From assembly GCA_044892525.1 (NCBI GenBank), contig CM097885.1, forward strand, positions 119,040,001-119,104,000: DNA of 64,000 nt. Reading direction: 5' to 3'. The position numbers and the translations under genes are program-made. The notes beneath the pieces are model-generated. The model saw nothing but the letters and a program-made list of their open reading frames with translations. It did no database searches and was not told the DNA's origin. This document shows positions 10,863 through 57,840 of the stretch, piece by piece. Each line of letters starts with the position of its first letter. The first letter of the stretch is position 1. The stretch comes from Schmidtea polychroa (Eukaryota).

Positions 10863-13299
10863 GTATTTCTGTAATTTTCAGCATCATGATGTCTAGTGAC
10901 GATAAATTTGTTTACAGTCTTTACTTTGGTTGAATTGTGTAACTTATACAAGACATTACTAAAGTTTTTAATTTGTCATTTTTGTTTGAAACTGGTATAA
11001 ATAAAGTCAAAATTAGTACAACGTGTGACAGGAATTATTTTGGATAAATCCTCTGTGTCCCCTTTGTAATCTAAAAAATGAATAAGTCCTGAAACTTTAG
11101 AAAAATATGCAATTCGATCTTTCCAAGAATAATAATTTTCACACATATGATGTGCATCAGTCCAAATACACCAAACACCACTGAGAACCGTTTCCTATAA
11201 TATAACAAAAAAATCAATAATCTTACATTATAGATGTTCACGTTGATGTTCTCATTTAGAGTGCAGTCAGATACATCTTATACTATAGAAATCTGAAAAG
11301 TGGAAGAAAAATTAAAAACTGCAGACAAACACAACACATACTAAAAACACATACAAACTTTTGATATATCGAAATGCACCGCTGAGATACGTTTCTATTT
11401 TCAAGAGCAGATGAATTTGGTTCAATGTCTTTTCAATCCAGATTTGCTTTCCTGAAAGAAGCCCTTATATAGAGCTCAAAAAAATTACAAAAATTAAAAA
11501 AATTATTTTATTCATACTAGAAGATTTTTCCCAAAATGTTTTAAAAATATACATATTTTTGGTGATTGATTTATTTAATTAATTATAATTAAAAATATAT
11601 TTGACTCACGTTTTTTCGAAATAATTCCAAAATACTTTAATAAATTACATAAAATTCCTAAAAAAGTCTGAAAATTAATTAAAATAATTTATAATTATAT
11701 AGTTGATTAAAAGTAATATTTAAGAACTTGAATAATGATCTCATATCCATATGGATCAAAATTCAAGTCTTAAAATTTACTTTAAATAAAAAAATTACTT
11801 GTAAGCCATTTGTAATGAGAGAGCATGAGAGCATTAGACATTGACAATTCAAAATCAACCACAAATGTCTTTGGAGCAAATGACTTTCCTGGACAGCAAT
11901 TCATTAACAGTTTTATTTATCTGTCATCGGTAGATTGTTTCTTGTTTGATACTAAAACTAGCAATAGAAGCATTAATAATTTTGAGTCTTGAATTAGTGA
12001 TTGGAAAAAGATCATCTGAAAAAATAGTGTGGAAGCCACAGAAAATGTACCGTCAACAAACAAAATTTATAGCACTAAAAATCTGAAGCAAAAATTTTGT
12101 TGTTGCAAAAAATAATTATTATGTCCTTGTCATCTTTTCCTGTATCAAATGCAATCCAATCTTCTTCTTTCTTTTTTTCAAGTAACGACTTGGAATGTCA
12201 AACACTTTTGATTTTGGTGGATGCTTGACTTCTGGCTCACGGTGGCTTTGCACACATTTTTCCATTGTAGAAGAATTTGCCTCATCATCCAATTACCGGT
12301 GCTATTTGGTAGATGTTTCACTTTTTTCATCAAGCTTCTTTATTTTTTTTTGACTTTTTGAATGTTAACAACAACAGGCTCTGGAGACTGAGAGTGGTGA
12401 CCAATTTCTTTTGAAGCACTTGAAATGTATACTGTCTGATGGCCTGGACACTTATTGAAACTTGAAAATTGGCAATTGTGATTAAATGATGTCTTTTATA
12501 TTCTATTCAGAATAAAGACATTGTGATTGTCGATTGGTAGATTTTTCCTTTGTTTGAGGAAATAACTGAAAGTCCAGCATTTTCATCTTAAAGGAAGAAG
12601 TTCTTGTTTGGCAATTAGGCGCTATCATTAATGGAATGATAAACTCTTCTGGTTCAATGTCTGGGGAAACTTCTTCGGAAACTTCAGTCAACAAAAAATA
12701 TGGGATTCTGTTTCTCGGACTTCCCATTGTTTTCCATCAAAAGCTAAGGTTATCTTTATAGCAACTTTTTTTGATTGAATCCTTCTATTTTGTATTAATT
12801 TAATTTAATACTAAAAATTCAAATCTAAATAACTGATGAGAAATGTAAATAAATTTTCGATTTAATGTTGTTGATAAAAATTCAAGATTGTGTTCGATTC
12901 TTTATTTAAAGGTGGTATTCATTGGGGTAAAGAAATCGTAAGTTTTATATATATTCGAGAAATTCTTACTTCGTGTTCAAATGAGCAACATAAATATTTA
13001 AATTGATAAGCAGAAGAAATAATTAAAATTTATCCTTGGATCAAAGAAAATGGTGACTGGGAACATTTAAAAAAATTACAAAAACAATGTTTTATAAAAG
13101 TTATTTTTAAATTTTTGGTTTTATTTATTTCAAGTTTATTAAAAATTTATCAACTTTACGTGTTTTTATTTAACAATTAATGTTGACAAACAAAACAATA
13201 ATTATTTAGAGTTGCCTAACAATAATTTGGTTATATTATTTAAACAATAATTAAATATATATAATAATATTTTCATAATTAAGAATAGTTAAACATTTG

Positions 13300-19896: not shown

Positions 19897-22331
19897 TATT
19901 GGGCTATAGCCAAAATATTGAGAACTTGTTTTAATGAATTGGAAATCCTTATCATAAAAACCGCACCAAGATGAATTAAAATCTTTGAATATAAATCAAA
20001 TAATACAAAGTAAAGTATACAATTACTTGTGAATAAATAAAACACATATAATAAAATTGGAAGAACGCAAGGAGTTCCAATAACCAACACAGTTAAGAGT
20101 ATAACAACGCATTTGAAAATCTGCCAACTCGAAAATCAAGTAATAATAAATAAAATAAATAATTAATAATATACATACGAAGAATCATAATCAAATTAAT
20201 TAGGAATGTTATGGTTCGTATTTATATTCAAAGGAGCTGTGACAAAATTGCAGAATTTAAGAAAAAGAACATGAAAAATTTAATTAAAAAGAATAATTAA
20301 AAAGTAATTATAATAAAAATTTCCATTAAAATTGATAAAGAAATAACAAAATGAAATAAAAAATAAAATTATTAAATAATTTATTTGTTTAAAAGCAATT
20401 AAATACAAAATTCATGCAAGTTAAATCTGGCAGCACTCGTGTACATGTGCATAATCAATCAAAATTACATGCATTCTGATTGGACAGTGCAAAAGCGGAC
20501 AACCAAAATCAGTCTAAATACCGACTGAAAATTCATTTTTTCAACTTAAATAAACTTAACTTGCGAACTTAACTTGTATATTTGTTAACTTACTCTCAGT
20601 TTTTCGGAGATTATGAATGTTATGCCTTGGTGTTAATTTTGTTTTCTGTATAATGTAAAGCTTATAAATGTTAACGTGTTATTTAATTTTTGTTCTTTTT
20701 ATTGTTCATTTCTAAAAAACTTAACCATCTTTTCAGAGACAGCCCAAAAATAAGTTTATGCCGATCATTTGGATATTACGGAAAACCTAAAATGGACCTC
20801 TTTGAGGTTTGGGAATCGTTCAGAAACGTCATTATTCAGTCCATCGGTAGATGGCCCAGCGAAGTTTATCGGTATAGACAGTCGAGGCCTTCGGGTGATG
20901 CTACACTAGCCCGACAGGTTGAGTCTTTGTTTGGCGCTCAGAATATTTCAACAGTTATCACTAGGGCAACTTAAATGCCAAAAAATACCAAGATTAAATT
21001 ATGAAGTGTTGATTGAAATACTGGATAGATTTGAAAATGGTGAATTTTCAATACTATTTGGTTACAATTGTTTATCAAATGTATCGTTTTCTTCAGATTC
21101 TTGCGGTATAAAACAGTATATAGCTGTACGATTAGAATCAAATAGCATATCCTCCATTTGTAAACTAGAAAATCCCGAAGTTTCACTGAGTGTATATTCT
21201 ATGTTATTCAACTGTCCGCCAACATCTATTGCAGTGGAGAGGAGATTCTTTATGCTTAAAAAATGTTAGCATTAGATAAAGATTTCAACGATGAAAATTT
21301 ATACACTTATTTTGCATTTTATTTCAATAAGGATAATAATAATTCATCGGTAGAAGATGATGGTTCGGATTTTGAGATGCAATAGGTAGGATAGCTGGCT
21401 TTTTTAACCTTTTATGATTGTTGTATTAATAAACGGTATATCCTTACTATCCATTGTTTATTATTTTTTACTTTTTTTTATACTTAATCTCCTTTTCCTA
21501 ATTGGTTATTCATTGACCAATACTTCTCTTATGTAATTGGCTATTCTCTAACCAATACCATTTTATAAAGTACATCAAAATACATTCAACAAACAAATTA
21601 ATTTTATCCCATATTCATTTGGTAATTTTTTGACAACATATGCCAAATTTTGCCGAAAAAACTCATCAAAAAATTGCTAAATTTGGGTTGCCCTAGTTGT
21701 TACTATTCAGAATCCTGGTAGAACAGAGAGGGCGGATCCTTTTACCTGAGGCCCGCGCAGTGAAATTGGAGAACCCATTAGGAAAGGAAAATGGGCGACC
21801 AAGGAGTCGCCTTAGTGGAGGGAATGGTCGTATTACGAGTGTGTCAGATATTCTGAGAGATAGGTTAGGAAAATTCAAAATCAAACTAAAGCTACATATA
21901 TTATACAATAGATAGGGTAAAAGACTGTCTCGATGAGTCAGCAATAAGATTTAACATAGACCAGGATTAGAATATTTATAAACTTGGAAATAAGAGTGGA
22001 TCCCTGCGTAAAATTTCCGAAGGTAACATTGTAAGTAAGGTGGGCCAGAATAATTTGAATAAGGATAAACGATAATCTAGATAAGGAAGCGACGTAAGAC
22101 CTTCTATTGGCAGTCCTGAACCCAAAAATAAAAAGGAAATGAGGAGTAGTTCTAGTAGTAGAGCTAACCTGCTCATTGATTTTCAGCGACTGTGTACATT
22201 ACCAACATGATTTATGCCATGGGTACACAGATGGTAAAAAGTAAAATATTATGAAGGCGTTTAGGGAAGAATCAATGCCAAATCTATAAGTAATTCTAGA
22301 ACATATAAATGACATACCCTAAGCGCCAACA
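19897..22331 (+). repeat. Large LTR (3' LTR of a truncated element) with nested hAT insertion
   Basis: Starts T(A)TTGGGCT after the same pre-LTR motif as element 4 and ends GCGCCAACA. Has ATTGG plus a TATA-like block near 20480-20520 and shares blocks with the LTR at 61911. Confidence 0.65.
20962..21695 (+). mobile_element. Internally deleted hAT element
   Basis: TIR TAGGGCAAC/GTTGCCCTA; 8-bp flanks GTTATCAC/GTTGTTAC (6/8 match); remnant dimerisation motif PPTSIAVERRFFMLKK. Confidence 0.65.
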
Positions 22332-22383: not shown

Positions 22384-22790
22384 TGTTGGAGTTTTTGGAA
22401 ATACGAAAAAATAAAAATTGCGATGATTTCCGATAATCACTCGGGAGAAAATCTCTCTAAACGCCATATGACTATTTCACACCGACCTATGTAGCCATGG
22501 CCATGACCATGTTGAAACTGTACGTAGTCGTCGAGAGTCAAGGAACATGTGACTTTGATTTCTAACACTACTTTTCATTTCTAAACTGCCGATAGAAGGA
22601 ATTAAGTTGATGCAAACGTTACAAAAATTGAATACATTAACAGAAGATAAGGTCTTCATTCATATCCACTGATATCTTTTCCGTGGCTTGTTAGTACACT
22701 TGCTCACTAATAATTATATAAATCAACACAATCAATACATGATAAACAGAAAAAATAATGAAAACCTTTATTCTGGGTTATAGCCCAACA
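22384..22790 (-). repeat. Short internally deleted solo LTR (407 bp), tail-to-tail with the LTR at 19897
   Basis: Minus strand TGTTGGGCTATAACC...CTCCAACA; flanks AAAC/AAAT; keeps the conserved U5 module. Confidence 0.6.
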
Positions 22791-29819: not shown

Positions 29820-30848
29820 TGTTGAGGTCTGTAAATTAAAAAGAAATTTAGGTTAATAAGTGAAGAGAAAAGACAAATAAAAGCGGGATCATGCACAGAA
29901 TTGATAGTAAAGGAAAATGTGATGGAAGCAGTATTAGAAAATGCCAAAGCAATTACGAAAGGCGAGAATCCGGAAATCCGAGAAAAATCAATAAAGGGAA
30001 AAATCATCGAAATCGAATGGGAAAAACGGGACAGGTATAGATTAGCTAATGGTCAACAAGATGATGGTTAGGGATTTATCAGAAAAGGGTTAGGAAGGGT
30101 CGAAAAACATTCAAACGTATGGAAACAGAAAACGTTAATTAATTAATTAATTGGCTAATGGAAAACCCGAGCTAATGGGAAACCCGAGCCAATGGAGAAC
30201 CCGAGAGATAAAGGAAACCCGAGCTGGGTAAACAAGAAGAAAGGCAAACAAAAGGAAGATTTGGGCCCATTAGCTTGACACAAAGATTAATGGGAAAAGA
30301 GTAAGGAGAAGATAGCGCGCGTAGGAAGACCGGTAGGGCCATTAATTATCTGGATTCGTTGGACCATTATGGGTGACAGCCGAAGCAAACACGTAGGAGA
30401 AAATGTCAAACGAAAGATTGGCTCGGCAATAACCATTTGTCATCCTGATTTCGAGGAGTATATAAGCAAAGGGAAAATCAGAGAAAATCGGCATTTTGCC
30501 TCAGGTAGGGTAAGAAGAATCGAGAATAGTCGAGAGGTAAAAACGAATTTAGGGAAGTAGGGAAAAGAAGAAATAGAATTAAGAATACGAAAAGGTGAAA
30601 AGGAATCAAACCAAACAGAAACCGAGGAAAACGAGAGTCAAGAGAATCGAAAGGATCGAAAGGTGAATATTATTTGTTTGCAAAGCATCAACGCCTAGCG
30701 GAGAATCGTATAAAACTTTGATTGGTAATTGTAGCGTGATAATAAATTGTGAACCTGTTGTTTCAATATACGTTGGGTTGTTCATTGTTTTGATTTAAAG
30801 AACACAGGAGTCAGAGAGAACCGACTTGAAATAATCCAAAGCCCAACA
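29820..30848 (+). repeat. 5' LTR (1029 bp)
   Basis: Nearly identical to 35120-36149; only three differences spotted by eye. Confidence 0.97.
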
Positions 30849-30855
30849 TATATTC

Positions 30856-30873
30856 TGGTGAGCCCGACGTGAT
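30856..30873 (+). promoter_or_regulatory. Primer binding site, tRNA-Trp
   Basis: TGGTGAGCCCGACGTGAT is complementary to the ...ATCACGTCGGG(G/C)TCACCA 3' end typical of animal tRNA-Trp(CCA). Confidence 0.85.
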
Positions 30874-32959: not shown

Positions 32960-33600
32960 TAAAGAGAATAGAAAAGTTGTCCTTTGGCATTTTTAAGATA
33001 AAAATATTCAAGTTTAGATAAATAATTTGGTACATGAACAGCAATACTCTTGTCTACATCTTCATAGCAAAGTAGTCCACATTTATAATCTGATAAGATG
33101 CGTGCATCATTGACTACCTCGATGTTGGTCGATTCAAAAACGAAACCCAAATAAACATCAAATGGGAAATATTTCACAAACGGAATAGCGTGACTGATTT
33201 TGTTAAAGCTTCTCATTAACAATTATTGTTGAACCGAAAACGTACAGTGGATAAACATCATTGAAATTTTGATCTTTCGACACATACCATCTGCTCCAAT
33301 TCAATCTGTAAGGTATGGCATTGAGATTCCGATGCCCGAATATTGCTAATCTATCAAAGAAATCCAATGACAAATGATAAAGGTTTTTCAAATTGATAAA
33401 AACATCATCATCTATGAAGATAAATCTTTGCTGGCTTATTGAATTCAGACACAAATGAAGCCTCATCCAATATATTTCCGCCATTAACTTTAATGTATTA
33501 TTCAAATAAGTATCTTTGAAATTACTTGAATCATGTCGTTGCTATTTTCCAGCTCTAATTTAATAATGAAAATACTGTACATTGAAATTCCCAATTTAAT
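32960..33600 (-). pseudogene. Captured beta-1,3-galactosyltransferase (GT31, Galactosyl_T-like) fragment
   Basis: NDMIQ..FKDTYLNNTLK, FIDDDVFIN (DxD), PYRLNWSRWYVS, YPLYVFG, FDVYLG, IAVH in GT31 order; frameshifted; no introns apparent. Confidence 0.75.
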
Positions 33601-35119: not shown

Positions 35120-36149
35120 TGTTGAGGTCTGTAAATTAAAAAGAAATTTAGGTTAATAAGTGAAGAGAAAAGACAAATAAAAGCGGGATCATGCACAGAA
35201 TTGATAGTAAAGGAAAATGTGATGGAAGCAGTATTAGAAAATGCCAAAAGCAATTACGAAAGGCGAGAATCCGGAAATCCGAGAAAAATCAATAAAGGGA
35301 AAAATCATCGAAATCGAATGGGAAAAACGGGACAGGTATAGATTAGCTAATGGTCAACAAGATGATGGTTAGGGATTTATCAGAAAAGGGTTAGGAAGGG
35401 TCGAAAAACATTCAAACGTATGGAAACAGAAAACGTTAATTAATTAATTAATTGGCTAATGGAAAACCCGAGCTAATGGGAAACCCGAGCCAATGGAGAA
35501 CCCGAGAGATAAAGGAAACCCGAGCTGGGTAAACAAGAAGAAAGGCAAACAAAAGGAAGATTTGGGCCCATTAGCTTGACACAAAGATTAATGGGAAAAG
35601 AGTAAGGAGAAGATAGCGCGCGTAGGAAGACCGGTAGGGCCATTAATTATCTGGATTCGTTGGACCATTATGGGTGACAGCCGAAGCAAACACGTAGGAG
35701 AAAATGTCAAACGAAAGATTGGCTCGGCAATAACCATTTGTCATCCTGATTTCGAGGAGTATATAAGCAAAGGGAAAATCAGAGAAAATCGGCATTTTGC
35801 CTCAGGTAGGGTAAGAAGAATCGAGAATAGTCGAGAGGTAAAAACGAATTTAGGGAAGTAGGGAAAAGAAGAAATAGAATTAAGAATACGAAAAGGTGAA
35901 AAGGAATCAAACCAAACAGAAACCGAGGAAAACGAGAGTCAAGAGAATCGAAAGGATCGAAAGGTGAATATTATTTGTTTGCAAAGCATCAACGCCGAGC
36001 GGAGAATCGTATAAAACTTTGATTGGTAATTGTAGCGTGATAATAAATTGTGAACCTGTTGTTTCAATATACGTTGAGTTGTTCATTGTTTTGATTTAAA
36101 GAACACAGGAGTCAGAGAGAACCGACTTGAAATAATCCAAAGCCCAACA
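35120..36149 (+). repeat. 3' LTR (1030 bp)
   Basis: Copy of 29820-30848. Confidence 0.97.
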
Positions 36150-36153
36150 GTAT

Positions 36154-36870
36154 GAATCTGGAGAAAAGCTCACAGCCTGCGAAAGTAAAGATCTTGATGG
36201 TTTCATGCTTGCTGAAGATTTGCAATCATTGAGTTCCATAATTCCTGCAGCCACCTACAACGATCCTGTTAAGATTTTGCAGTTTCTGTTAGTAAACAAG
36301 CGCTATAGTGACTTTCCTAACACACACATTGCACTTCGAATACTTCTAACTATTTCTGTCACTGTTGGTTCCGGGGAAAGAAGCTTTTCGAAATTTAAAC
36401 TTATTAAAATATAATATATGCAATATATGCAATCAACAATGATTCAAGATCGGCTTAGTAACTTAGCTATTTTGTCAATCGAGAATGATGTTGCTAAGGA
36501 TCTTGACAATAATGAACTTATTACAGATTTTGCAGCAGTCAAAGCTCGCAAGATTTGCTTGTAAGTTGTAAGTAGAAGATACAACCAAACCAACGCTATA
36601 GTGTATATAGTTTATAATTTAGAGTTATATATGAACTCTTAATTTGCATGTCAAAACAAAACATTTTAATTATTAATTTTTTTTTGAGTTGTATGATCTT
36701 CAATTAAATGAATAAAACTGTAATTATTGATGTGTCAACGCTGTTATAGAATAAAAATTTAAGTATTTTAATTTTTTATTTCCCATTATTTTAATATATG
36801 TAGAAATGTAATTTTTTGCATGGGCCCCGCTCATCATTTGCTGCCTTGGGCCCGCATGCCCTAGGGCCGA
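36154..36870 (+). pseudogene. hAT transposase 3' part (dimerisation domain) and element end
   Basis: FPNTHIALRILLTISVTVGSGERSFSKFKLIK...STMIQDRLSNLAILSIE, stop at 36563; GC-rich subterminal GGGCCCCGCTC...GGGCCCGCATGCCCTAGGGCC. Confidence 0.9.
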
Positions 36871-38745: not shown

Positions 38746-40329
38746 ATGATGGTGATAAGTTTTAATGGTGATAAATTTAATTGATAAATTTAATTAATTT
38801 CTTGATAATTAGTTGTATTTTATTGAATTGTTTTTAAATTTTAAATTAATTTTATTGACAATTAGGTTAATAATTAAGTGATAGAATAAATTTTTGATGA
38901 TAACTTTGTAATATATTTGACTAAATAATGTTTTCAATAATTTTCTAAGAATATTTACACATTGATGAACTTTAAAAAACATAAGCTAAGAAACCAGTTA
39001 ACTTTATCAAGGACTTTAAATTTACTTGATAATTATTGTAGGATACTGAAATTTAGTTTGCTGTTACCGCTTGAAAATGATTGGTTGAATAGCTGAAGAA
39101 TTATGATCAAACAATATATATCATCTCTAGTTAGGTATTTGATGGGTGAAATATTTGTAGGAAATAATGAGTTTATTATGTCTGTTACATAAGTCGACTT
39201 TAGCGTCAAAATGTGTTTTTAAAATATATTTAAATTTTAAAATACCACAACGTAATATATTTTTTCCCTGCCCTTCCATGATTTTGATTGGTTAGTGGGC
39301 TCTTATTATTTAGCTTCTAAATTATTTCAATGGAAGAATATTTGGTGTCTTTAACAGTTAATGAAAAGTTATATTTTTGAAGTTCTTTAAGGATTTTAAG
39401 AGCTGGGATATTGTCGGTGAGATTTAATGAGAGGTCGGTTAAGATGAGAATATATGATTTTTTAAGGGTGATGTTGGTAAAATATCAATGTTTTAAGGGA
39501 AATTGCAATACATTAGTCAGTTATGAATCAATAATAATGTGAAATTATATCGTTTTATTAGGCTGTGATTAATGCACAGTAAATTAATTTAGAACAATGT
39601 TTTATTAAGTAGAGATGATGATCGATTTACTTGGTTTTGACAATGAAATCTTTACAGATAATTGGGATTGATGTCAACTTTAAATTATTTCTCTTTGACA
39701 ATTATTAACTTATTAAAATTTCTATTTAAAATTAGCTTAAAAAATTATTCCATAAAAGTTTCTATTAAAATTTGACTTAAAAAATTATTTCTTAAAAATT
39801 TCATTTTAAATTTTTATTTCTCAGAAGCGGTTGGTTATTCCAACTTTTTGTTAATAAATTTTAATTTAAAGTTTTGAACCTATAATTTAAAAATAAAACA
39901 TTAAGTTACCTATTTATCCTTGTATTACTTTATTTAAAATTTTTTACCATAATTTACAACCAAATATAACCCTTATTTTCATATTTAACCAATAATTTCA
40001 TGTAGTGAATGATTAATTGACAATGATTTGCATCTTTAATTACTATTGAAAAATAATACATAAAAATTTCCATCTAAAATTAACATTGAAAAATAATTCA
40101 TAAAAATTAACTTTAAAAAATAAATTATTTCATTAAAATTTTCATCTAAAATTAACACTGAAAAATATTTCATAAAAATGTATATTAAAAATTATCTTAA
40201 AAAATATTCGTTAAAAATTTTCATTTAAAATTTTCAATTCTCAATCACCAACTATTATTCCAACTTTTTGTAAATAAATTTAAAAATCTAACTTTAATTT
40301 ACTTATTACATTACTTAAATTTACTTATT

Positions 40330-41887: not shown

Positions 41888-44205
41888 AACTCTCAACCAC
41901 CACCTACCCATTAACTAGTTACCATGTACTAACAACTAGGTCTCAAACAACTAAATACTAAACATTTACAACCACATACTAACAACCACCATCAAAACCC
42001 ATCGAGGAATTAACAAATGTCAACCTACAACTAAATACTTACAACCAGATACCTGCTACCAAGTACTTACAATTAGAAACCAAGTACCAACAATCAACTA
42101 ACAACACATAAAAATAATAGCAATTAAATACAAAATATTCTTCATCACATACACTATCTTCTTATCAAAATCTAAAAAGTCAACCAACTACTTACAACCA
42201 ACAACTATGTACTAACAAATTGATCTTTAAAATAAAATACTCGTCACTTGAAAAATTAGATGGAAAATTATTTGAACTCAAGGCATAACTTGGTAAAAAT
42301 TGATTAAATTATTGTAAAAATTTAAATTATTCAAAACATACTAAATAAAAAAATATAATTAATGGACAAGAAAGAACATTAAATTTGAATCATTAAGTCA
42401 CTTGCAAGATTTGTAAGATACTGGATAGTAAATAAAAAATACTAATCATTCAAGTTAATATGAATCAACTAAGATAATAAATTAATAAAATTTTAAAATA
42501 AGATCTAGTAGATAATTGATTTAGATTGAATAAATTAATTGAAATAAAATTAATTTTAATTATTTTTTTAAAAGTAATACATGTACTCAAATTGATTGAC
42601 TGATTGCTCAAAATATTCAAAAAAAACAGTATAAATTCATTACAATTATCAAAGTCAGCAATCTACAATAAAAATAATTATCATTAAATTCCAAAAGAGA
42701 CTAGATAACTAATGATAACATCTAATAAACCAGTAAATTCATTTAAATGACAATAATTGGTATATTCAAGCGAATTCTCTAATAAAATCATCTAAAAAGC
42801 ATCAAATTTCATATATATTCATATATTCCCCTCAAACTAACAAGATTCCTTAAAATCCCTTAAATGACTATATTTCAACCCTTAATTCATATTATTACAA
42901 ATATCATTTAAAAAGCATCAAATTTCCTTGAAATAACTCTATCCTTAAAGATTGATATTTTAATGATAAGTACCCGTAAAAGATCATATATTCCCCTCAG
43001 ACTAATAAGATTGCTTAAAATCCCTTTAAATGACTATAATTCTAACTTTAATTCCTATTATCATACATATTTCACTATTGATAAAACCAGTTACAATTAA
43101 ATTTTTGTTAATCACTGTAAATTTTTTTAAATCATTGTACTCGAAATTTAAAATAAATATAACTGACTAGGTCCCATTGAAAGATTAAATTTATCCATTC
43201 AATAAAATATATTTCTTCAAATGGTCAACTTTTGTCGTTGTCCGTCTAAATAAAGATAAAAATAATTTAAAGTTGACATCAATCCCAATTATCTGTAAAG
43301 ATTTCATTGTCAAAACCAAGTAAATCGATCATCATCTCTACTTAATAAAACATTGTTCTAAATTAATTTACTGTGCATTAATCACAGCCTAATAAAACGA
43401 TATAATTTCACATTATTATTGATTCATAACTGACTAATGTATTGCAATTTCCCTTAAAACATTGATATTTTACCAACATCACCCTTAAAAAATCATATAT
43501 TCTCATCTTAACCGACCTCTCATTAAATCTCACCGACAATATCCCAGCTCTTAAAATCCTTAAAGAACTTCAAAAATATAACTTTTCATTAACTGTTAAA
43601 GACACCAAATATTCTTCCATTGAAATAATTTAGAAGCTAAATAATAAGAGCCCACTAACCAATCAAAATCATGGAAGGGCAGGGAAAAAATATATTACGT
43701 TGTGGTATTTTAAAATTTAAATATATTTTAAAAACACATTTTGACGCTAAAGTCGACTTATGTAACAGACATAATAAACTCATTATTTCCTACAAATATT
43801 TCACCCATCAAATACCTAACTAGAGATGATATATATTGTTTGATCATAATTCTTCAGCTATTCAACCAATCATTTTCAAGCGGTAACAGCAAACTAAATT
43901 TCAGTATCCTACAATAATTATCAAGTAAATTTAAAGTCCTTGATAAAGTTAACTGGTTTCTTAGCTTATGTTTTTTAAAGTTCATCAATGTGTAAATATT
44001 CTTAGAAAATTATTGAAAACATTATTTAGTCAAATATATTACAAAGTTATCATCAAAAATTTATTCTATCACTTAATTATTAACCTAATTGTCAATGAAA
44101 TTAATTTAAAATTTAAAAACAATTCAATAAAATACAACTAATTATCAAGAAATTAATTAAATTTATCAATTAAATTTATCACCATTAATACTTATCACCA
44201 TCACA

Positions 44206-47200
44206 ATGTGCTTAAAAGATAAAACCGGCAGGATATGTAAAATGAACGCGATAATCAGATGTCCAGAGAAAATAATAGTACCAGCAAATTCGCAAATGAT
44301 ATGCCAGATTAAAGTAGATACGGGCATGGAAGGGGAAGTTATTTTCGAACCAAGTAAATCCTTTGAAAAGAGACGAGAGTTACCACTAGCAAGAGAGATA
44401 ATAACAATAAACCAAGAAGGAGTAATACCGATCAACATCACAAATTTCGAAGAGGAAGGCAAAATTATCGATGAAAATGAAAGACTGGGTAAATTGACTC
44501 CAATGATGGATATAGAGTTACCAAAAGTGACCAACGAAACAGCAAAAGATTACGAATTATGGACAATCGACAGTACATTGTTGACTGTCACCGAAAAAGG
44601 AAAATTACACAAGCTATTAGTAGAATATAAAGATATATTTGCCATCTCATATTTAGATTTGGGTACATTTGATGTTACCCTACATGCAATACCACTGATA
44701 GATGAAACTCCAATTGCGTCGAGACCATACAAACTAGCAGAAATGCAAAAAGAAATAGCTGAAGCAGAAGTACAAAAAATGCTAGATGCAAAAGTAATCG
44801 AACCAAGTTGCTCAACCTGGCAGTTTCTAGTGGTCATGGTGAAAAAGAAAGATGGCACGTAAAGATTCTGTATCGACTATCGAAAATTAAACGCAGTAAC
44901 AAAGAGGGATACCTACCCATTACCAGACATCAATGAGATGTTACTTATGTTGCAAGGGGCAGCATATTTTACGTCTTTAGATTTAAAAAGTGGATACTGG
45001 CAGATTAAAGTCAAGGATGAGGACAAAGAAAAGACCGCTTTCACGTTGGGACGAGATCTATATCAGTTCAGAAAAATGCCATTCGGACTGACCAACGCAC
45101 CAGCATCGTTCCAAAGGTGTGTGAACTTCGTCACTCATGGAATCAAACAATGTATGGTATATATTGATGATTTACTAATATATTCAGCGACATTTGAACA
45201 ACATCTGGAGGATATCAGAAATGTATTTATACGCTTACGACAACGGAAACTCGAACTCAAACCTTCAAAATGCGATTGGGCAAAAGAGAAAGTTACGTTC
45301 TTAGGACATATAGTGTCAGCCAAAGGAAAAGAGCCAGATCCACGAAACATCGAAAAAATAAAAACATGCCCAGCACCAAAAACCGTCACGCAAGTGCAAG
45401 AATTCCTAGGATTATGTGGATATTACCGAAAATTCATCAAAAATTATGCAGGAATTGCGAAACCAATCCAAGAATTAGTAAAGAAAGATATCTCGTTCAT
45501 TTGGGAAAAGGAACAGCAAGAGGCATTCGAGACGTTGAGAGATAAATTGATTGAAGCACCAATCCTAGTACACCCATATTTCAAGAAGCCATTTCTATTG
45601 GCAACCGACGCAAGCGGATATGCAGCATGAGCAATTTTAGGACAACTAGATGACGAAGGAAAAGAGAGAGTAATCGGATATTACAGTCGAACGTTCAAAA
45701 AACACGAGAAGAACTATTCAGTAACCGAAAGAGAAGCATTGGCTATAATACAAGCAATCAAACATTTCCGATATTTGCTATGGGGACACGAGATATGCAT
45801 AACCACAGATCATCAACCATTAGTGTGGTTAGGGCAACATAAAGAAGCGTCAAGTAGACTGATGAGATGAGCCATGCATATAAAATTCAAAGCAGGAAGA
45901 GCAAATGCCAATGCCGACTGCATGTCGAGGTTTATTTTCCCAGATTTGGTGGATCAAGAAATGCAACGGATATGTCTAATAGTAGCAGAAGATTTAGATT
46001 TTTGTCAATTACGAAAAGATCAGCAAGAAGATGCAGAATTAAAGCAAATTATTGATTATGTGAAAACGGGAAAACCAGATGTGTATGAGAAAGACCAAAA
46101 ATTAAAAGAACATATGGACAAACACTGACATCGATACGTCATAGAAAAAGATTGGCTGTTGATAATGGATGGAGAAAAGCGATTAATGTGTATACCGGGA
46201 AATAGACGGAAAGATCTATTGACACAATATCACGATGGTAGATTGGGAGGACATATGTCATCAAAAAAGACGTTAGCGAGAATGAAACAGAAATATTTTT
46301 GGCCTACATTAACCGAGGACGTAACAGAATGGGTGAAAAATTGTCTAACTTGTGCAACCAGGAAAAACACTGGATCAAAATGGAAAGCACCGTTAACGCC
46401 AATGCCGGTACCGATAGAACCTATGACGATGATATCGATGGACGTAGTTGGTCCATTACCCGAATCAGATAGAGGAAATGTCTTTATTTTAGTAATTACG
46501 GATTACCTCACGAAATTCCCAGAAGCATTCGCTATGCCAGATCAAAAAGCTAAAACAATCGCAAAAATACTGGTAGAGGAGATATGTTGCCGGTACGGAA
46601 CGCCAAAACAAATACTAACAGATCAAGGAACTAATTTCATGAGTGAAATAATGAGTGAAGTGACTAACTACTTCAAAATCGCAAAGTTGAGAACATCACC
46701 GTATCACCCCCAAACAAACGGGATGACGGAAAGATTCAATGGAACACTCATTCAAATGCTGTCGAATTATGTCGACCGGCACCAACGAGATTGGGACGAA
46801 TATATAAATCTGTGCCTTATGGCGTACAGAATGTCAATACATGCATCTACGAAAATGAGCCCATTCAAATTAATGTACGGAAGAGAATGTAACATGCCAA
46901 TGGACCTGGAATACCAACCACCAATATCGCAATATATGGAGATAGGCGATTACGTCACAAAATTCAAAGAAAGAATGCAGGAGATTTGGGAAACGGCAGG
47001 GTTGAATATCAAGTTTTACCAGGAAAGTTGTAAAGACTTACACGATCGAAAGAAAAATGTGAAACAACATACATTCCAGACAGGCGATTGGGTAATGATA
47101 GAAACACCCGAATTAATTCCAGGAACCACCAAAAAATTACAATGGAATGGAAAAGGGCCATACGAGATTCTATTTGTAGGTGAAACCAACGTGAGAGTAA

Positions 47201-47643
47201 AGTTGGTAAATAACCCGTTCACCAGGCCAATATACGTCAATGTGGCACGTTGTAAACCAATCCCAAAAACAGCCACCAGTCAACCAGAAGGCCGTACGTT
47301 AACCACACGTTCGCAAACCTACAGAATGAACATGATGCAGCAGCTCGCAGAACCAATAACCGGACAATTGGGTATACAACCATCGGAAGCCGAAAAGATT
47401 GTAAAAGATGTAAAAATTAAAATACCCGGATGGGCAAAAGATAGACTAGATTTCGAAATATTAGGCGGTCTATTGACAATGATCGAAAATTACGCAAACA
47501 GAGAAAGAACACATCCATTATTACGAGTAGTTAAAAGTCAATGGCCAACATTACTTACAATAACAGATCATTATGGAGACACACCATTACATAAACTCAT
47601 GAAAGTAGGCAACATTGAGCAAATACTAGAAACAATAGAATAA
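44206..47643 (+). pseudogene. pol: Pol: post-protease domain, RT, RNase H, integrase
   Basis: RFCIDYRKLN, MPFGLTNAPASFQR, YIDDLLI, TDASGYAA, TDHQPL, HDGRLGGH..CLTC, SMDVVGPLP, LTDQGTNF, NGMTERFNGTL, GKGPYEI; in-frame stops at 44860, 45628, about 45868 and 46126. Confidence 0.97.
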
Positions 47644-49092
47644 TTTCACTACTGCAAGAGATCAACAGAACAAGAAAACAACCAAGGCTACACACCATTA
47701 ATGATAGCAGCAAACAAAGGCAAAACAAAAGACATTATAACAGCATTACTTGAAACAGGATCGAAAATAACTACACAAGATCATGACCAGAAAAATGCGC
47801 TACATCACGCAATCGAAGGGGAAAATGCAGAAACATTCATAACGCTGATGGAACTACTATCATATGAGGATAACCGAGAGGTCGGAAACATGTATGACGG
47901 ACTACTGACGGCGATCAAAGAGAAACTAACAACAATCACCGGAATATTAATTGCATGGAGGAACCCAATTAGAAATGATTATATGATAGACGTAAACGAA
48001 ACATTCACAAGAGGGGAAAATACGTTAATGAAGGAAGCAATGAAAGGACATCATTTATTCGAAATCCCAAACCAATTATTAGAACGAGGGATAAAGTTCA
48101 CAAACCATAAAGATGAGCAGCTATTAAAAAAGCGAATCGACATATTCGAAAAATCAATATTTCAATTCATTAACAAAGTGCGAGATAAATATTGGGAAAC
48201 GGTAAGCGTGTTATATATGATGGACACGATGAACAACATTCGCGAGAATTACTTAGACATTATTCAAGTACTTATAGCAGAAGAACGAATCAATAACTCA
48301 ACCGGAAAGAAAATAAAAATAAAGAAATGGGCATCAAAGGAACCAAAGTCGCAAACGAATCAAACTACAACAAATAAAGTCATTGAAACAAGACCGACAA
48401 ATTCAGATCATGAAACAATAATACGCAAAGCTAAAGAGGTGTTCTTCGAAGAAATGCAAGAGTTATCAGACGAAATGATATTATCAAAAATCATAAAAAC
48501 CGTGCATACATATGCAAGAGATCAAACAACGAATTTAGATATCGGGAAAATCAAAACCTTCATGCCACGAGCATTTACGATGTCGACAAAGGATCAAAGA
48601 ACACCATTGCAACAGGCAATATTGGCAGCAAAAGAAAACCGAGCAATAACGATCATAAGAATCCTCAGAGATTTGGGTGAGGAAACTAACACGAAAAACG
48701 AACAAGGCGAAACAGCCATGATGTATGCAGCTATAACAAAAATACACCCAAAAACATTACATATATTACATCAATCGGGATCGAGACTAGATGAAAAGTC
48801 AAACGAAGGAAACTCCACAATGGATTGGGCAACCATACAGCCAAACCTAGAAATGATCAGATTCCTCTGCAAAAATGCGACAAAAGAGGAAGTTGAAAAC
48901 ATCTGCAAAAATACATCTCAATTCCAGTGGAATACTGTAAGGAAAAATCTAGAAGCAATGAAGCTATTATTAACATGGAAAGTACCGCAAAGTAATAAAT
49001 ATGCGATAAATATAAACGAATTCTATGAAAACGGGGAAAATGCGATGGTAAAAAACACATTAACCAAAGGGGGGACACAAAAATCATACTAA
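47500..49092 (+). CDS. Ankyrin-repeat extension of Pol (two clusters), one in-frame stop at 47641
   Basis: YGDTPLH, QGYTPLMIAA, QKNALHHA, QRTPLQQA, QGETAMMYAA, EGNSTMDWA. ORF 47701 is in frame with integrase ORF 46159 across a single TAA. Confidence 0.85.
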
Positions 49093-49537
49093 TTGTATTA
49101 AATAGAGAAAACCTGAGATTCACAAAAAAACAGAACGAACAACAACGAATTGGAAAACACCGCCGTGTAAAGAGAATTAGTAAAAGAATGGAACAGGAAA
49201 AGACATGCAGCAACCGGGAGAAAGTAGTTCGAATTTGAAGCTAAACTAGCAAGAAATAGAGTACTGACAGCATACCGAAGACTGTTTGAACGATATAAAT
49301 GTCGAGGACGACATTTTAAACGACAGCGGGGGAGACAAATACGACGATAATGACGGAAAAGGTCGAAAGGAAGACAGAGAGAAAAGAAAACCGGAGGAGG
49401 ATAACCAAGGAAACAAAGACTCAAATATGGAAAAGGAGGGAAACAACCTGGAAAACAAGATGAAAGAGGAGGAAAAAACAAATGATGGAAAACAGAGGGT
49501 ATGCCTACCTATCACCAACAAAGAAATAGAAACGAAC

Positions 49538-50377
49538 ATGATATTGATGATACTTGTGCTAACCATGATAGAGATAGTAACAGCTCATGGAGGGATGAGA
49601 ACGATAAAAGAGACCAAAGAAGCGGAAAATCACGACAATAAAGAGGAAGAACTAAAACAGGAAAAGAAAAAGCAAGTACAAGAACAACAATGGGATCTAA
49701 AAGAAAGGTGTATACTAGGAAGATGCATGTCTAGAACATATCAGAGACTAGTGCTGATAAATGAAGATACGGAACCAATAACGGGAGTGGGAATACAGGA
49801 AGCGTACCAACATCGAAACGGGAAGAGAATAACGAAAGTTAAATGGAAAGAGATACACCTAGGAAAAGGAGGTGAGATAGCAATAACACAACTTCAACCA
49901 AGGAAAGAACACAAAGTTTGTATTTCAAGGTTAGGACCAGGAGAGTACTGTCTACAATATGTAACACAGCAACAACCACCAAAGGAATATACGGTCTGTA
50001 TTTTGAGAAAAAGACCAGAAAAGGAATGCCGACGATATCCGGGGAAAAGGGGAAAGAAAAGAAAGATCAATGACAAAGGAGAAGAAGAAGGGAAACGCAA
50101 GAAAACCAATGAGAAAAACCAAGACAATTACGTGTCAGAAGAGGAAATGGAAAAAATACAAAAAATGGCAAAAGAAGGAATTAACGAGGAAATAGCAAGA
50201 ATACGAGGGTTGGAGAAAGGAAAAGCCAATGCAGAAAAAGAAAACGAGAAAAGTACTGAAGTAGGGAGTACCATTACAAACAATGGAAAATCAGAAATTA
50301 TCAGCGTAAACCAGATGATATGGATCAGTGGAATAATAATAACCGGTGCGTTCATAACCATAACGGGGGGACGATAA
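49538..50377 (+). CDS. Predicted type I membrane protein with FN3-like ectodomain
   Basis: Signal-like MILMILVLTMIEIVTAHG; KVKWKE..IAITQLQPRKEHKVCIS (FN3-like); C-terminal MIWISGIIITGAFITITGG. Confidence 0.55.
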   Translation: MILMILVLTMIEIVTAHGGMRTIKETKEAENHDNKEEELKQEKKKQVQEQQWDLKERCILGRCMSRTYQRLVLINEDTEPITGVGIQEAYQHRNGKRITKVKWKEIHLGKGGEIAITQLQPRKEHKVCISRLGPGEYCLQYVTQQQPPKEYTVCILRKRPEKECRRYPGKRGKKRKINDKGEEEGKRKKTNEKNQDNYVSEEEMEKIQKMAKEGINEEIARIRGLEKGKANAEKENEKSTEVGSTITNNGKSEIISVNQMIWISGIIITGAFITITGGR

Positions 50378-50849
50378 AAATAATCCGAGATAAACAACAG
50401 CGTAGCAAACTCGAAATGATCAGAGTCAGAAATTTCCAACATCGGGTAAAAAGACCCAGTAAAATAAGCCAAGAGCAGTGGATGGAGGCCTGGAATGCGC
50501 AGCGCCCTCCGAATCTACAAATATAGAAAGGGTTATGACTGTATATAATTGTAAAAAGTAAGTATATCTTATGTATATAACAGTATCATATTCTTATATA
50601 AGCGCGGTATTAATATTATATAACGATCGGGAGAAATAAACAATATAAAATTAAATAAGACAAAGATTGAGAGTGTGTATAAAATTAAGAATGGAGCAAG
50701 GAAACAACGAAATAAACCACAACACAGCAACCGAAGACATGTGGAAGCAACAATTCGCCCTATTAGCACAATTAGTATCTAATCTGCAGGAGCAAGGACT
50801 TACGATGTAAAGAAACTTAGTCGACAGTCTAAACAAAGGATTTAGTTAT

Positions 50850-51050
50850 TTGAAAATAATTGAGGATCAGAGGACAAAAATCGAACAAATGCAAAGAGAG
50901 TTAGAGCGGATAACACGATACAGCCAGAGACAAGAAGATGAGTTAGTAAGAATGGCGGAGGAAGCAGAACAAGAGGAGATGGAAGACTGGTCAGAATGGT
51001 TAATGAGGAGAGAAGAGGGCGGACAGGAGGCCGACTCTTCTGAACCATAA
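50850..51050 (+). CDS. Small acidic coiled-coil ORF
   Basis: Heptad-like EQMQRELERITRY...EDELVRMAEE; non-ATG start in the track. Confidence 0.35.
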   Translation: MKIIEDQRTKIEQMQRELERITRYSQRQEDELVRMAEEAEQEEMEDWSEWLMRREEGGQEADSSEP

Positions 51051-51134
51051 ACAAAACCCAAACTAGGTGTAAATAATTGTAAATAAAATATTGAACCTAT
51101 ATCGATAAGAAACTATATGTATATAATTGTAGAC

Positions 51135-52523
51135 ATGGATAAGCAAAGAAGAGAGGAGTTTAACGAAATCATCGAACTAGTCAGAAATTCCACAGCAATC
51201 AAAATACACAAGCATGTTATGTGTGGGATATGTGAAAAGTTGTTAAAGGAACCCCATCAAACCAAATGCGGATGCAGATTATGCAAAGAATGCATAAAAG
51301 AGGCAATAAAGAGTAGACCACAGTGGTGTCCGGTATGTAAAGAAACCCTGATATCAAGTCTGGAAGATACCAATGAGGATAAAGCCGCAGTAAAAGATAT
51401 GTTGAACGCTAATCTGGGATGTAAAAATACCCCATGCGAATGGAAAGGACTAATATGGAAAGTAAAACAACATATAAAGGAATGTATATACCGAGTCAGC
51501 CAATGTGACCGATGCCAAAAAAAAATCCAAGCCAACGAAGAAAGAGAACATCAAAGCCAATGTGAGGAAAGGCTAGAAAGATGTGAATATTGCGGCGAAA
51601 CAGACACAAGGAAAAATCTAACCCCCAAACATCACAATGTACAAGAGGAAAAGATATGTGCAGAATTCTGTGGTGAGTGTCCAAATGGATGTAAAACAGG
51701 CGGAATGGTAAAAATAGCCCAACATCTAAAGGAATGTGAAAAGAAAAGAATAATATGTGTATTAGGCAAATGGGGCTGTCAGAAACTACTGCACCAAGGA
51801 GAATTGCTACACCATTTAACAGAAAACGTATCAACTCACGCAGAGATGTGGTCAACCGCGTTGCAAGAAAATGAAGAAAAAGTTCAACAAATGGAGATAG
51901 AAATAACATCGTTGAAAGCATTGGTAAAAGAACTGTTAGAAGAAAGAGAAGCCTTCGAAGAAGCCCGAGCAAACATAAAGATGCAAATAAATCGGATAGA
52001 AATCAGTAATAATCAGGCCAAGGTGCTGCATCAAAAGATAAACGAAATAAATCTCAATGAGGTAATACCAACAACACCCTACATATGGAAAATAACGGGA
52101 GTGAAAGAAAAAATACGAAAAGCAAAAATTGGGGAAGATACAAGAATAACAAGCCCCGCATTTCATTCGTGGAAGAACGGATATAAAATGAAAATAAAGA
52201 TATACCCCAACGGGGACGGAACCGGATTGGGGACACACTTCTCTATATTCTTTCTATTATGTAAAGGAGAACATGATGAGATAATAGAGTGGCCGTTTCA
52301 GGCAAAAAACGATATCACAATAATGAATGACCAAAGCATACACGAACAAAGCTTCAAAACAACGGGAAACCAGCTATGTTATCAGAGACCTCTTGAAGAA
52401 GAAGGAGCAGCAACGGGAGCACCTACGTTCATTCTACAACGGAAGTTAGAGGATATGGCAAGAAATGACACGATATATATAAAAATGTCAGTGAGAAAAG
52501 ACGGGAAGGGTAGAACAGAATAG
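51135..52523 (+). CDS. TRAF: TRAF-family protein (RING, TRAF zinc fingers, coiled coil, MATH), intact and intronless
   Basis: CGICEKLLKEPHQTKCGCRLCKEC...CPVC (RING); CKNTPCEWKG..HIKEC, CDRC..HQSQC, CEYC, CPNGC..HLKEC, CVLGKWGC..H (zf-TRAF); coiled coil; YIWKI..SPAF..GYKMKIKIYPNGDGTGLGTHFSIFFLLCKGEHDEIIEWPF..YQRP..NDTIYIK (MATH). Confidence 0.95.
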   Translation: MDKQRREEFNEIIELVRNSTAIKIHKHVMCGICEKLLKEPHQTKCGCRLCKECIKEAIKSRPQWCPVCKETLISSLEDTNEDKAAVKDMLNANLGCKNTPCEWKGLIWKVKQHIKECIYRVSQCDRCQKKIQANEEREHQSQCEERLERCEYCGETDTRKNLTPKHHNVQEEKICAEFCGECPNGCKTGGMVKIAQHLKECEKKRIICVLGKWGCQKLLHQGELLHHLTENVSTHAEMWSTALQENEEKVQQMEIEITSLKALVKELLEEREAFEEARANIKMQINRIEISNNQAKVLHQKINEINLNEVIPTTPYIWKITGVKEKIRKAKIGEDTRITSPAFHSWKNGYKMKIKIYPNGDGTGLGTHFSIFFLLCKGEHDEIIEWPFQAKNDITIMNDQSIHEQSFKTTGNQLCYQRPLEEEGAATGAPTFILQRKLEDMARNDTIYIKMSVRKDGKGRTE

Positions 52524-55247: not shown

Positions 55248-55523
55248 CAGTCAACTCTACCTTAACATTAATATCCCAACTCACCAACAGCCACCAGCAG
55301 AAACATCCGATTGTTGAACAGTATCTGAACTATAACGGAAACATTATCTGTGAAACTTTTATTGTATATTGTGATTCTTTATTGTGATTCTTACTTATCT
55401 TAACTTTGCCATTTGTCTGAATAAAAATTTGTTGTTGATTATTGTTTTACCTTTTTATGAATGAGTGAAGGTAGTTCGAATATGTAATTGCGGGACGCAA
55501 TTTTGATGGGTCCCCCAGTGATT

Positions 55524-56500
55524 TGTTGGGCTGAGTCGAAAGCATGGGTAGGAAAGTAGGACAAGCAAGATGTTAAAGAAAATAAAAATAAAATAAACAA
55601 ATTTAAAAATAAACTAGAATCAAAATACAAAAGAAACAATAATTAAAATATAAGAATTAAAACAAAAAATAAAAATAAGAAAATCAAAATAAGAAAATAA
55701 AATAACGAATAAAATGACGCAAAATTTAATAAATAATGAGGAAACTAAAGAAACAAAAAAAATATAATAAAAATAAGGAAAATAAGGAAAAATAACCAAA
55801 AAACAGAAAAGGTAAATTAAATTAGAAAAACTAAGCGGTACTCAATTCTGATTGGTCCGCACACATGAAAAATTAATATATAAGTAAGCACCAAAATCAT
55901 TAAAATCACGGCTAATTCAAAAAATTCTATAGGTAAGCAAACTTCGAAAATATCATGACGGTTAATTCAAAAAATTCTATAGGTAAATCCAGAAAACAGC
56001 AGCGACATACAGAAACTATTCAAGAAACCACCAGTACTAGAAATCGACATTCAAGGAGCAATCATTAGTAGGAATCAATCAGATTACTTTCGACAACGTA
56101 ACGATTAATTTCGACTCAGCCCTCATACCGATAACGATAGTAAGGAGATCTTTTATTTTTGAAAAGTTAAAAGTAATCATGGATATTTGTTAAATAATTA
56201 AAATTTTTGTTTAATGCGAATTTCTCTTCATTTGATCCTTTTTCTTTTCGTTTAATAATCTTAACAAGGTTAATAATTTAAATGTTTACATGTGATTGAT
56301 AATAATAAAGGACTTATTTAGAAATTTTTATGATTTGTTTCATGATCTAATTTTTTATGATTTACATTTTATGAGGAACGTGGAGTTGAGACGTTTCATG
56401 TCATGGTGTGAGGGGCCTTCGGGTGCTCAGCCGGTGGACATGAAACCTTTCAATCACGCAGTTGATTCGGGCCGTAATTTGGGGGCTTCCTCACGGGTCC
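55524..56500 (+). repeat. 3' LTR of element 4 (end not located)
   Basis: TGTTGGGCTG start shared with 61911 and 19897; ATTGG box near 55850; GGCCTTCGGGTG block shared with the LTR at about 20865. Confidence 0.55.
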
Positions 56501-57840
56501 GTCGCTGAAGGTCATCTAAATCTATTTAGGATAGTAGAACACAAGCTGCATAAGAAATTTTAAAAATCGTAAGAAAAGTAATGTTCACGGGTCACAGTGA
56601 TTGAGGGAGCTACCATCTTTATGCCTACAATGACTCTACAAACCAGCGGCATTATTCTTCGAAAAGTTCACGTCATCACCGTCTGTAAATCTGAATCTCT
56701 AATTCTTCCCTTGATGACTCGATTAACACTCATCTCCAGCGAAATTCTCCAACACCTTAAAGTTGAGCTCTCATTTTATTTTTCGGAGGTTAAGCCGATT
56801 CGAAATTTTCACCATGATATCTTGACATTCAGACGATAGAGCATAATAATAACATTGTTGAAAATTTTAATAACAAAACTGTATGTGTAACAATACTTTA
56901 TTTAAATACATTGGCAAATTCTGAACTACCTGCGTAAACATCTCCTATGCGATTCTTTCAGAATATTGGTCACTGAAGTGAAAGTAATAGATATCTTCTA
57001 GATGGTTTAGAGAGATTCCCCATCGCTTAATATATCCAACTCGAGAGAAATTGCAAATTATAGCAACGAATTCCAATTTTGCCGGTTAGATGCGAACTGA
57101 CAGAAGACGACATGATATCAAAAAAATTTTCCAATTCAACTCGTTATGGCAAGTAGAATTTCATCAAGTAAAACATGTGCATGTACATATTGTATCTGCT
57201 AGTGACGATAGTCATATGTGAGAATGCGTGAGAAATAACATAACTAACGAGTAACCATTAACAGTAGAAAGTTGCACCATAGGACGCACTCGGCAGAATT
57301 TTTATCGTTGTGTATAGTAGTGGGTGAGAATATTAGATAACAACTGCCATAAGGCACGTCACCCAGGCCGGTAATTCCCAGATTTTTGTTTTTGATAAAA
57401 ATTTTGTGTCATTAATCTAGATAATTGAGTAATCGACAGACGACTACTGTAGGCGATTCAAGTCCTTAAAGTCCAAATTTTAGAGATTTTCAATTAAGTA
57501 TTATAAATAATAATTGAAAAGTATTACAAATAATAATTAAAAAGTATTATAAATAATAATTAAACTTAAACAGATCTATCCGGGTAATTCCTTAGATCCT
57601 CATGTATAAAAATCGTCAAGCGGGAAAGGGAAAGCCTTGGGGAAAATAAACAGCTCTATATATATTATTTTTTTTTATTTTTATCTAAATTGTGATTTGG
57701 TATTTTTAAGAGAAATTCAGAAGTTACTAAATTCACTCAATTGCAGAATTTTCATACTTGACTTATTTGCATTCGTCAAGACAATAGTATATGTTATTAA
57801 TTAATTATGGTAAATAATATACAAAGTAGTAATGATTAGT

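Follow-up and report, generated by a model that had tools for sequence, protein, structure and literature searches.

A predicted four-helix RNA domain beside the tRNA-Pro primer binding site of Burro-type retrotransposons in Schmidtea polychroa

At the 3′ end of Burro-type LTRs in Schmidtea polychroa lies a conserved module that is predicted to form four RNA helices (H1 to H4), the last of which closes at the start of the primer binding site (PBS) for tRNA-Pro. The first-pass annotation of a 64,000-nucleotide stretch (assembly GCA_044892525.1, contig CM097885.1, positions 119,040,001 to 119,104,000 of the forward strand; referred to as the window) had claimed a selected RNA structure. This claim is supported by covariation in 36 copies and in 23 further ones, and by an excess of G-U over A-C cells. 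We propose that the predicted domain acts as a 5′-leader replication signal, framing the tRNA-Pro PBS for primer loading and packaging, and we put the probability of this reading at about 0.5. The cis-acting RNA structures of LTR retrotransposons have been mapped mainly in yeast Ty1 and Ty3. Structured leaders around the PBS are known; the present case is new in its fold, in lying within the LTR, in the pairing of the spacer and in the absence of a polypurine tract. With thousands of naturally diverged copies, one animal genome is enough to define the fold by covariation alone.

The module in the window and its helices

All four copies of the module are present where the first-pass annotation had placed them. 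Block 1, the sequence with which the module was said to begin, is exact at 22091, 58949 and 63246 and has three mismatches at 22608 (-); shuffles gave 0/100. Copy 1 starts with the H1 hairpin (22091-22115 (+)), in which a 3-bp outer stem, a purine-rich internal loop and a 2-3-bp inner stem carry a conserved UUCUA-type loop. The H1-H2 linker follows (22116-22130 (+)), a PAS-like candidate with 7 nt complementary to the T-arm of tRNA-Pro. H2 (22131-22184 (+)) is a long stem with a conserved 1x3 internal loop, where U stands opposite CAC (AAC in copy 1). H3 (22190-22230 (+)) contains a 5-nt bulge, CC/GG and an invariant AA, and the H4 region (22231-22331 (+)) gives an 11-bp stem that closes near the LTR end. 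The decayed LTR around copy 1 (19897-22331 (+), approximately 2.4 kb, its start approximate) is preceded by the Burro pre-LTR signal. No PBS was found after this or any other copy in the window.

The other three copies are damaged within the module. Copy 2 (22487-22608 (-)) has a broken H1 outer stem and has lost approximately 20 nt, comprising the linker and part of the H2 5′ arm. It sits in an internally deleted solo LTR (22384-22790 (-)), which confirms the 407-bp deleted LTR described earlier, with TG...CA ends and flanks alike at 3/4 positions. Copy 3 (58949-59076 (+); H1 58949-58973, H2 58989-59030, H3 59036-59076) lacks 13 nt of the H2 inner stem, and its linker is without the T-arm complement; it belongs to the 3′ LTR (55524-59205 (+), 3.7 kb) of a Burro-type element. 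Copy 4 (63246-63384 (+); H1 63246-63270, linker 63271-63284, H2 63285-63338, H3 63344-63384) shows two changes adjoining the H2 loop and is part of an LTR of the short-LTR subfamily B (61911-63476 (+)), the 3′ end of which is masked by N. In the other three LTRs, which end at 22331, 22384 and 59205, the module stops 102, 103 and 129 nt before the LTR end, in agreement with the 100-130 nt given before. Folded as single sequences, copies 1-4 have z-scores of -2.35, +0.43, -4.35 and -1.57, and in view of these values the fact that the 407-bp LTR still contains the module speaks only weakly for selection.

The structure drawn in the first-pass annotation stands for H3, whose outer and inner stems match its description of a two-part stem-loop, and misses H1, H2 and H4. 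Block 1 was taken as a plain sequence block and is actually the H1 hairpin. Most of the supposed variable purine spacer belongs to the 5′ arm of a long stem pairing around block 2, so that the two together form H2. The GNRA loop, listed as a feature of the module, occurs in only 12/59 rows. A covariance model scores the four window copies, which are part of its 36-row training set, at 86-144 bits and finds no others in the window, the next match having 8 bits.

The training alignment holds 36 copies aligned by sequence alone, with pairwise identities of 39-97% (mean 59%). It comprises 33 of 41 cluster representatives (copies 1 and 2 included), copies 3 and 4 and a second copy from locus L043; truncated or badly decayed representatives were excluded by eye. 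RNAalifold recovers H2 and H3 unaided, and H1 was not recovered. Over 37 named pairs, two of which are mostly unpaired and were later dropped, 87.3% of the cells are paired, versus 69.9% after shuffling and 33-38% after sliding. Two-sided changes are seen in 28 of the 37 pairs. An all-against-all scan of the same rows ranks 9,730 column pairs, and the top 10 are all among the proposed pairs. Under a tree-aware null, only two pairs exceed all 40 replicates and five reach E ≤0.25.

Among 32 model matches in new loci, five short ones were excluded, and 23 of the remaining 27 were kept as a held-out set at less than 90% identity to the training rows. Since these loci were chosen with the H3 pattern, the test is independent for H1 and H2 only. 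In the held-out copies, 678 of 792 cells are paired (85.6%) versus 34-38% after sliding, and 17 new pair types appear. When all 59 rows are scanned with weights, proposed pairs make up 7 of the top 10, and most of the non-proposed top pairs reflect the split between subfamily D and the rest. G-U cells outnumber A-C cells by 211 to 64 on the plus strand, which is therefore the favoured strand.

Approximately ten near-invariant unpaired bases are spread across the three helices. A140, A141 and U105 occur in 59/59 rows and A102 and U34 in 58 each, and the C, A and C of the H2 internal loop occur in 56, 58 and 53 of the 59. The apical loops of H2 and H3 are variable. The H1 loop resembles a tRNA T-loop, but with U in place of the tRNA purine. 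None of the covariation scans highlights a pseudoknot pair. Pairing of the H1 loop with the linker as a pseudoknot was considered and set aside, as the partner often abuts the stem without a spacer.

Host elements and the tRNA-Pro primer binding site

The hosts match Burro-type gypsy elements, to which we assign them by size and by the domain description in the available part of PMC6431247. Burro, or GYPSM1, denotes giant gypsy-like LTR retrotransposons of Schmidtea mediterranea (Jurka 2007; Grohme 2018; via PMC6431247), for which the same part describes many accessory ORFs. Four host elements that we measured are approximately 30-36 kb long with LTRs of 3.7-5.2 kb, and 4-bp target duplications flank the elements where checked. 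In the window element that holds copy 3, the ORFs at 44863-52520 encode RT, RNase H and integrase as well as ankyrin, RING and MATH domains, and two related loci have gag and zinc knuckles (Pfam on ORFs). Total size, LTR length and these domains are shared with Burro/GYPSM1. In contrast to our analysis, the published account, in the part available, covers proteins only and contains no LTR RNA structure (PMC6431247). Two further elements of approximately 15.5 kb, with LTRs of 1.65 kb, keep the module; only a gag-type ORF was seen in them, and this derivative is likely a non-autonomous family.

The RT is 91-99% identical among four subfamilies, and the LTRs are mostly unalignable between subfamilies. 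To judge from these sequences, the hosts are one clade with fast-changing LTRs. The four window LTRs, which had been called diverged, belong to one clade and are thus not independent origins. Neighbouring module copies are LTR pairs. Ordinary BLAST fails to link the subfamilies, and the module model serves as a clean marker for Burro LTRs. We notice that the RT of subfamilies C, C2 and G is 98-99% identical with LTRs largely unalignable, which suggests LTR swapping or very fast LTR turnover. An ORF of 250-290 aa lies within the LTRs of several subfamilies (L033:1232-2017, L043, L046 and L049) and ends 300-400 nt before the module. It is decayed in the window, at approximately 57900-58660, and the four ORFs tested have no Pfam match at the curated cut-off.

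The PBS was defined as the complement of tRNA-Pro, whose sequence was taken from the same genome, and was searched without the module motif to avoid selection bias. Our sample is the first 30 of 1,076 PBS matches, from subfamilies B (8), C (2), D (13) and G (7), the labels being those of this analysis. The H1 loop, the H2 loop and H3 lie upstream of the PBS in 30/30 loci, with H3 starting 113-173 nt before it. The PBS is located 7-8 nt beyond the LTR end (loci L051-L080), where the usual distance is 0-3 nt. In four of five elements the 5-nt word TGATT immediately precedes the 3′ LTR, and in three of them it also follows the 5′ LTR. Together with the PBS offset, this implies unusual cDNA ends for integrase.

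A fourth predicted helix bridges the LTR end. In 30/30 loci, the 47 nt that follow H3 pair with a 29-nt stretch reaching up to the PBS, with -19.9 to -29.4 kcal/mol. As the basal 6-10 pairs of H4 involve the 7-8-nt spacer beyond the LTR, the helix can form in full only at the 5′ LTR, in the 5′ leader. In the predicted pairing, the PBS starts at the H4 foot and H3 lies approximately 15-25 nt from it. The H4 arms change in step between subfamilies B/G, C and D. Arms of one subfamily average -22 to -26, versus -10.5 to -18 across subfamilies. The exception is D with C, where the 5′ arms of D pair equally well with the 3′ arms of C (-22.3) and with those of D (-21.8). The H4 region alone folds no better than shuffles (z -1.7 to +0.5), and H4 is therefore less secure than H2 and H3.

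The linker between H1 and H2 holds an exact complement of tRNA-Pro nt 50-55 in 19/36 rows. Against nt 49-55, at least 6 contiguous pairs (G-U allowed) are formed in 40/59 rows (23/36 and 17/23), compared with a background of 9.5% of random LTR windows, and this stretch is the best of 66 tRNA 7-mers. All rows come from one clade, so the match amounts to one event. The complement is missing in 19/59 rows, including all of subfamilies C, E and F. Because subfamily C lacks it, yet shares the PBS and has LTR pairs 99.9% alike, the T-arm contact cannot be essential. A CCC run also matches the anticodon arm in 29/59 rows, and the linker letters could alternatively pair with the H1 loop (at least 4 pairs in 38/59 rows).

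A contact of the proposed kind is described for HIV, in which the PAS, 8 nt in U5, binds tRNA nt 48-55 after the T-stem has been opened by the PBS (available part of PMC3675109). Our module resembles the HIV-1 U5/PBS in a structured, presumed U5 region adjoining the PBS, and 6-8 nt complementary to the 5′ strand of the primer T-arm make its linker a PAS-like candidate. It differs in the primer, tRNA-Pro, in its fold and in the offset PBS. The complement also differs in lying in a predicted single-stranded linker approximately 200-250 nt upstream, and three subfamilies lack it. The natural split into subfamilies that have the T-arm complement and those that do not offers a ready contrast for PAS-like priming outside retroviruses.

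In the D loci, a second GAACC complementary to the tRNA T-arm is found approximately 20-30 nt after the PBS (e.g. L055, L060), in 13/13 versus 0/17 of the others. Genes for tRNA-Pro(TGG) are arrayed in tandem, with a period of 475 bp, at G000:C1:130.90-130.95 Mb (L278-L283), and the tRNA 3′ pattern has 1,552 matches in the genome.

The proposed leader signal and other readings

As a 5′-leader replication signal, the domain would be transcribed as R or U5, and H4 would set the PBS beside H3. The conserved loops may dock on each other or bind a protein, most simply the zinc-knuckle Gag. The PBS would open the tRNA's acceptor stem and its T stem, and in most subfamilies the linker could then pair with the freed T-arm strand, as an optional second grip on the primer. 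Packaging and priming are the best fit of the functions offered by the first-pass annotation, given the fixed position before the PBS, the closure of H4 on the spacer and the T-arm complement in the linker. Its suggestion of a dimerisation signal fares poorly: a palindromic apical loop, as in DIS-type hairpins, is present in 4, 2 and 6 of 59 rows for H1, H2 and H3. On the other hand, retroviral packaging signals are mostly downstream of the PBS, which counts against a leader signal placed upstream.

Ty1 and Ty3 make additional contacts with the tRNA, and their structured 5′ ends contain Gag sites (available parts of PMC5371799 and PMC4974528). It is by analogy with them that the domain would bind protein and affect priming and packaging (PMC4974528, PMC5371799). 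According to the same parts, the likeness extends to a compact cis-required 5′ RNA for priming and packaging, retained in mini-elements, and to additional tRNA contacts and 5′-3′ pairing near the PBS. In contrast to Ty1 and Ty3, no pseudoknot was detected here, and the module is wholly LTR-internal, upstream of the PBS and approximately 3 kb before gag.

The HTLV Rex-response element and the MPMV CTE are precedents for an RNA response or transport element, through which an accessory protein or host factor could govern nuclear export, import or stability. We consider such a role of the module somewhat unlikely. Its invariant loops on freely varying stems do resemble protein sites, and the H2 internal loop has the shape of a C-loop (1x3, within a hairpin, the longer strand starting with C), as defined in the available part of PMC9516175. 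According to the same part, a C-loop is required for viroid nuclear localisation; the comparison also draws on the available part of PMC8570644. The numerous Burro accessory ORFs, among them the 250-aa ORF within several LTRs, would provide candidate proteins. In the B LTR, however, the module is kept and that ORF was not seen; a transport role also leaves unexplained both the closure of H4 on the PBS spacer and the fixed PBS distance. Control of transcription or 3′-end formation, whether TAR-like, poly(A)-hairpin-like, or through a U1 site that blocks 5′-LTR polyadenylation or a splice donor, appears unlikely to us. The module is present in both LTRs and its H1 internal loop reads GTAAG, a donor-like word, in 33/59 rows, but subfamily D keeps the fold without this word, and AATAAA at a shared offset near the module was found in none of the six LTRs listed. 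On one B element, contigs of sets X1 and X7, whose RNA origin is guessed, overlap or adjoin the module, X1 is thinly covered in mid-LTR and X6 shows a different pattern; RNA ends and level are not readable from these sets, which carry no weight in our ranking. No splice joint at H1 is listed in four contig sets on this element, which cannot show RNA ends.

A self-cleaving or ligating ribozyme, processing or circularising the element RNA by the primer site and linked to the missing polypurine tract, would be a new ribozyme class if the module were catalytic. The near-invariant unpaired bases over three helices, for which no Rfam family accounts, speak for it, and hammerheads are reportedly present in the LTRs of retrozymes. 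Like these, our module is a conserved structured RNA within the LTR; unlike them, its hosts include pol-coding elements and the hammerhead core (CUGANGA and GAAA at a three-way junction) is found in 0/59 rows on either strand, with no Rfam match. Scans of both strands of the 59 rows with class core motifs likewise gave no core of the hairpin ribozyme, twister, twister-sister, pistol or HDV kind. The HDV L3 word UYCNCGY is found in 0/59 rows on the plus strand and in 14 on the minus strand, where the fold does not apply; H1 read as P1/P3/L3 of the HDV nested double pseudoknot gives a P1 of at least 6 bp in 1/59 and a 5-bp P2 in 1/59. The hairpin ribozyme loop B strands AGAAACA and GUAYAUUAC occur in 3/59 rows each on the plus strand, and its loop A words, present in 53/59 on both strands, are too short to discriminate. 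Twister, twister-sister and pistol words are seen in 0-1/59 rows, and hatchet, judged by Rfam only (E up to 5-10), gave no match. For an ENE triple-helix element, with its U-rich internal loop on both strands, two U5 runs occur in only 2/59. Other points against catalysis are that no pseudoknot pair is prominent and that an invariant unpaired G is absent, unless the GG of H3 is unpaired. The hosts also retain LTR pairs of the ordinary kind, a complete tRNA PBS and target duplications of 4 bp, and by established LTR biology cleavage within the 5′ leader would take away the terminal repeat required for strand transfer. No known core was found, and an undescribed ribozyme, as proposed in the first-pass annotation, is quite improbable. 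Conservation at the DNA level (hairpins in minus-strand strong-stop DNA, integrase sites or promoter sites), or inherited likeness with stems arisen by chance, is in our view very improbable. In one clade with very close pol genes, shared ancestry explains sequence likeness, and the antisense of copy 3 also folds well (z -2.91). But outside the module, LTRs of different subfamilies can mostly not be aligned, while inside it two-sided changes keep the pairing; the G-U excess on the plus strand also argues against the DNA level.

Copy number and other conserved signals

The genome searched comprises 781 Mb, and its counts from exact patterns are lower bounds. Exact matches to the 15-nt core of block 1 number 2,809, versus 0 for the reversed control, and the H3 pattern has 7,018 versus 6 in controls. 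The first 30 loci of the H3 pattern all score at least 86 bits by the covariance model, many of them overlapping the training set. A search for the module before another TGG-type PBS gave 39 matches versus 5 in controls; the matches listed are ordinary copies, and their loci supplied the held-out set. In viral contigs, two patterns gave at least 120 and 7 matches, and by inspection none of the matches listed has the full fold. One strict pattern gave 2 matches in the metagenome and no model match. Eight of the viral and metagenome pattern loci score at most 17 bits by the covariance model, and an RT query found no relative in the viral contigs.

No Rfam family matches the module. Neither five loci compared at E up to 5 nor the 3.8-kb LTR compared at E up to 10 had a match within it. 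At gathering scores, the whole window gave only a mir-753 precursor (11717-11777 (-)), a family which we take to be a planarian microRNA. A full-text literature search, with Grohme 2018, its supplements and Repbase outside its scope, returned no description of the module, and the available parts of PMC8532177, which reports expression of BURRO1 in smedwi-2 RNAi animals, PMC13238120 and PMC12220202 contain nothing on LTR structure.

A polypurine tract is absent before the 3′ LTR, where the window (55484-55523 (+)) and five elements have 5-8 purines in 15 nt. Instead, this site contains a conserved small hairpin and a stretch able to pair with the PBS over 8-16 bp, with -15 to -20 kcal/mol. The stretch resembles the tRNA 3′ end. 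5′-3′ cyclisation or unusual plus-strand priming is a possible role of this signal. The window also contains a gypsy LTR pair of another kind (29820-30861 and 35120-36164, 99.3% alike), with a different PBS and a normal polypurine tract, in which the module is absent. A galactosyltransferase-like fragment is located in that element (33206-33541 (-)), and an inverted pair of 944 bp lies at 38747-39690 and 43260-44203 (99.8% alike).

Far upstream of the module, we notice a second structured island in the LTR (window 56353-56510 (+)), also present in B, C and C2 LTRs (L275, L258 and L274). BLAST gave no match to it in the LTRs of G or D, in which other strong hairpins are present. The island consists of a long hairpin with compensatory changes and a small hairpin, is 82-93% alike between otherwise barely alignable LTRs, and reaches a folding z of -8.8 in one 120-nt window. 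It may mark the transcription start or the R region.
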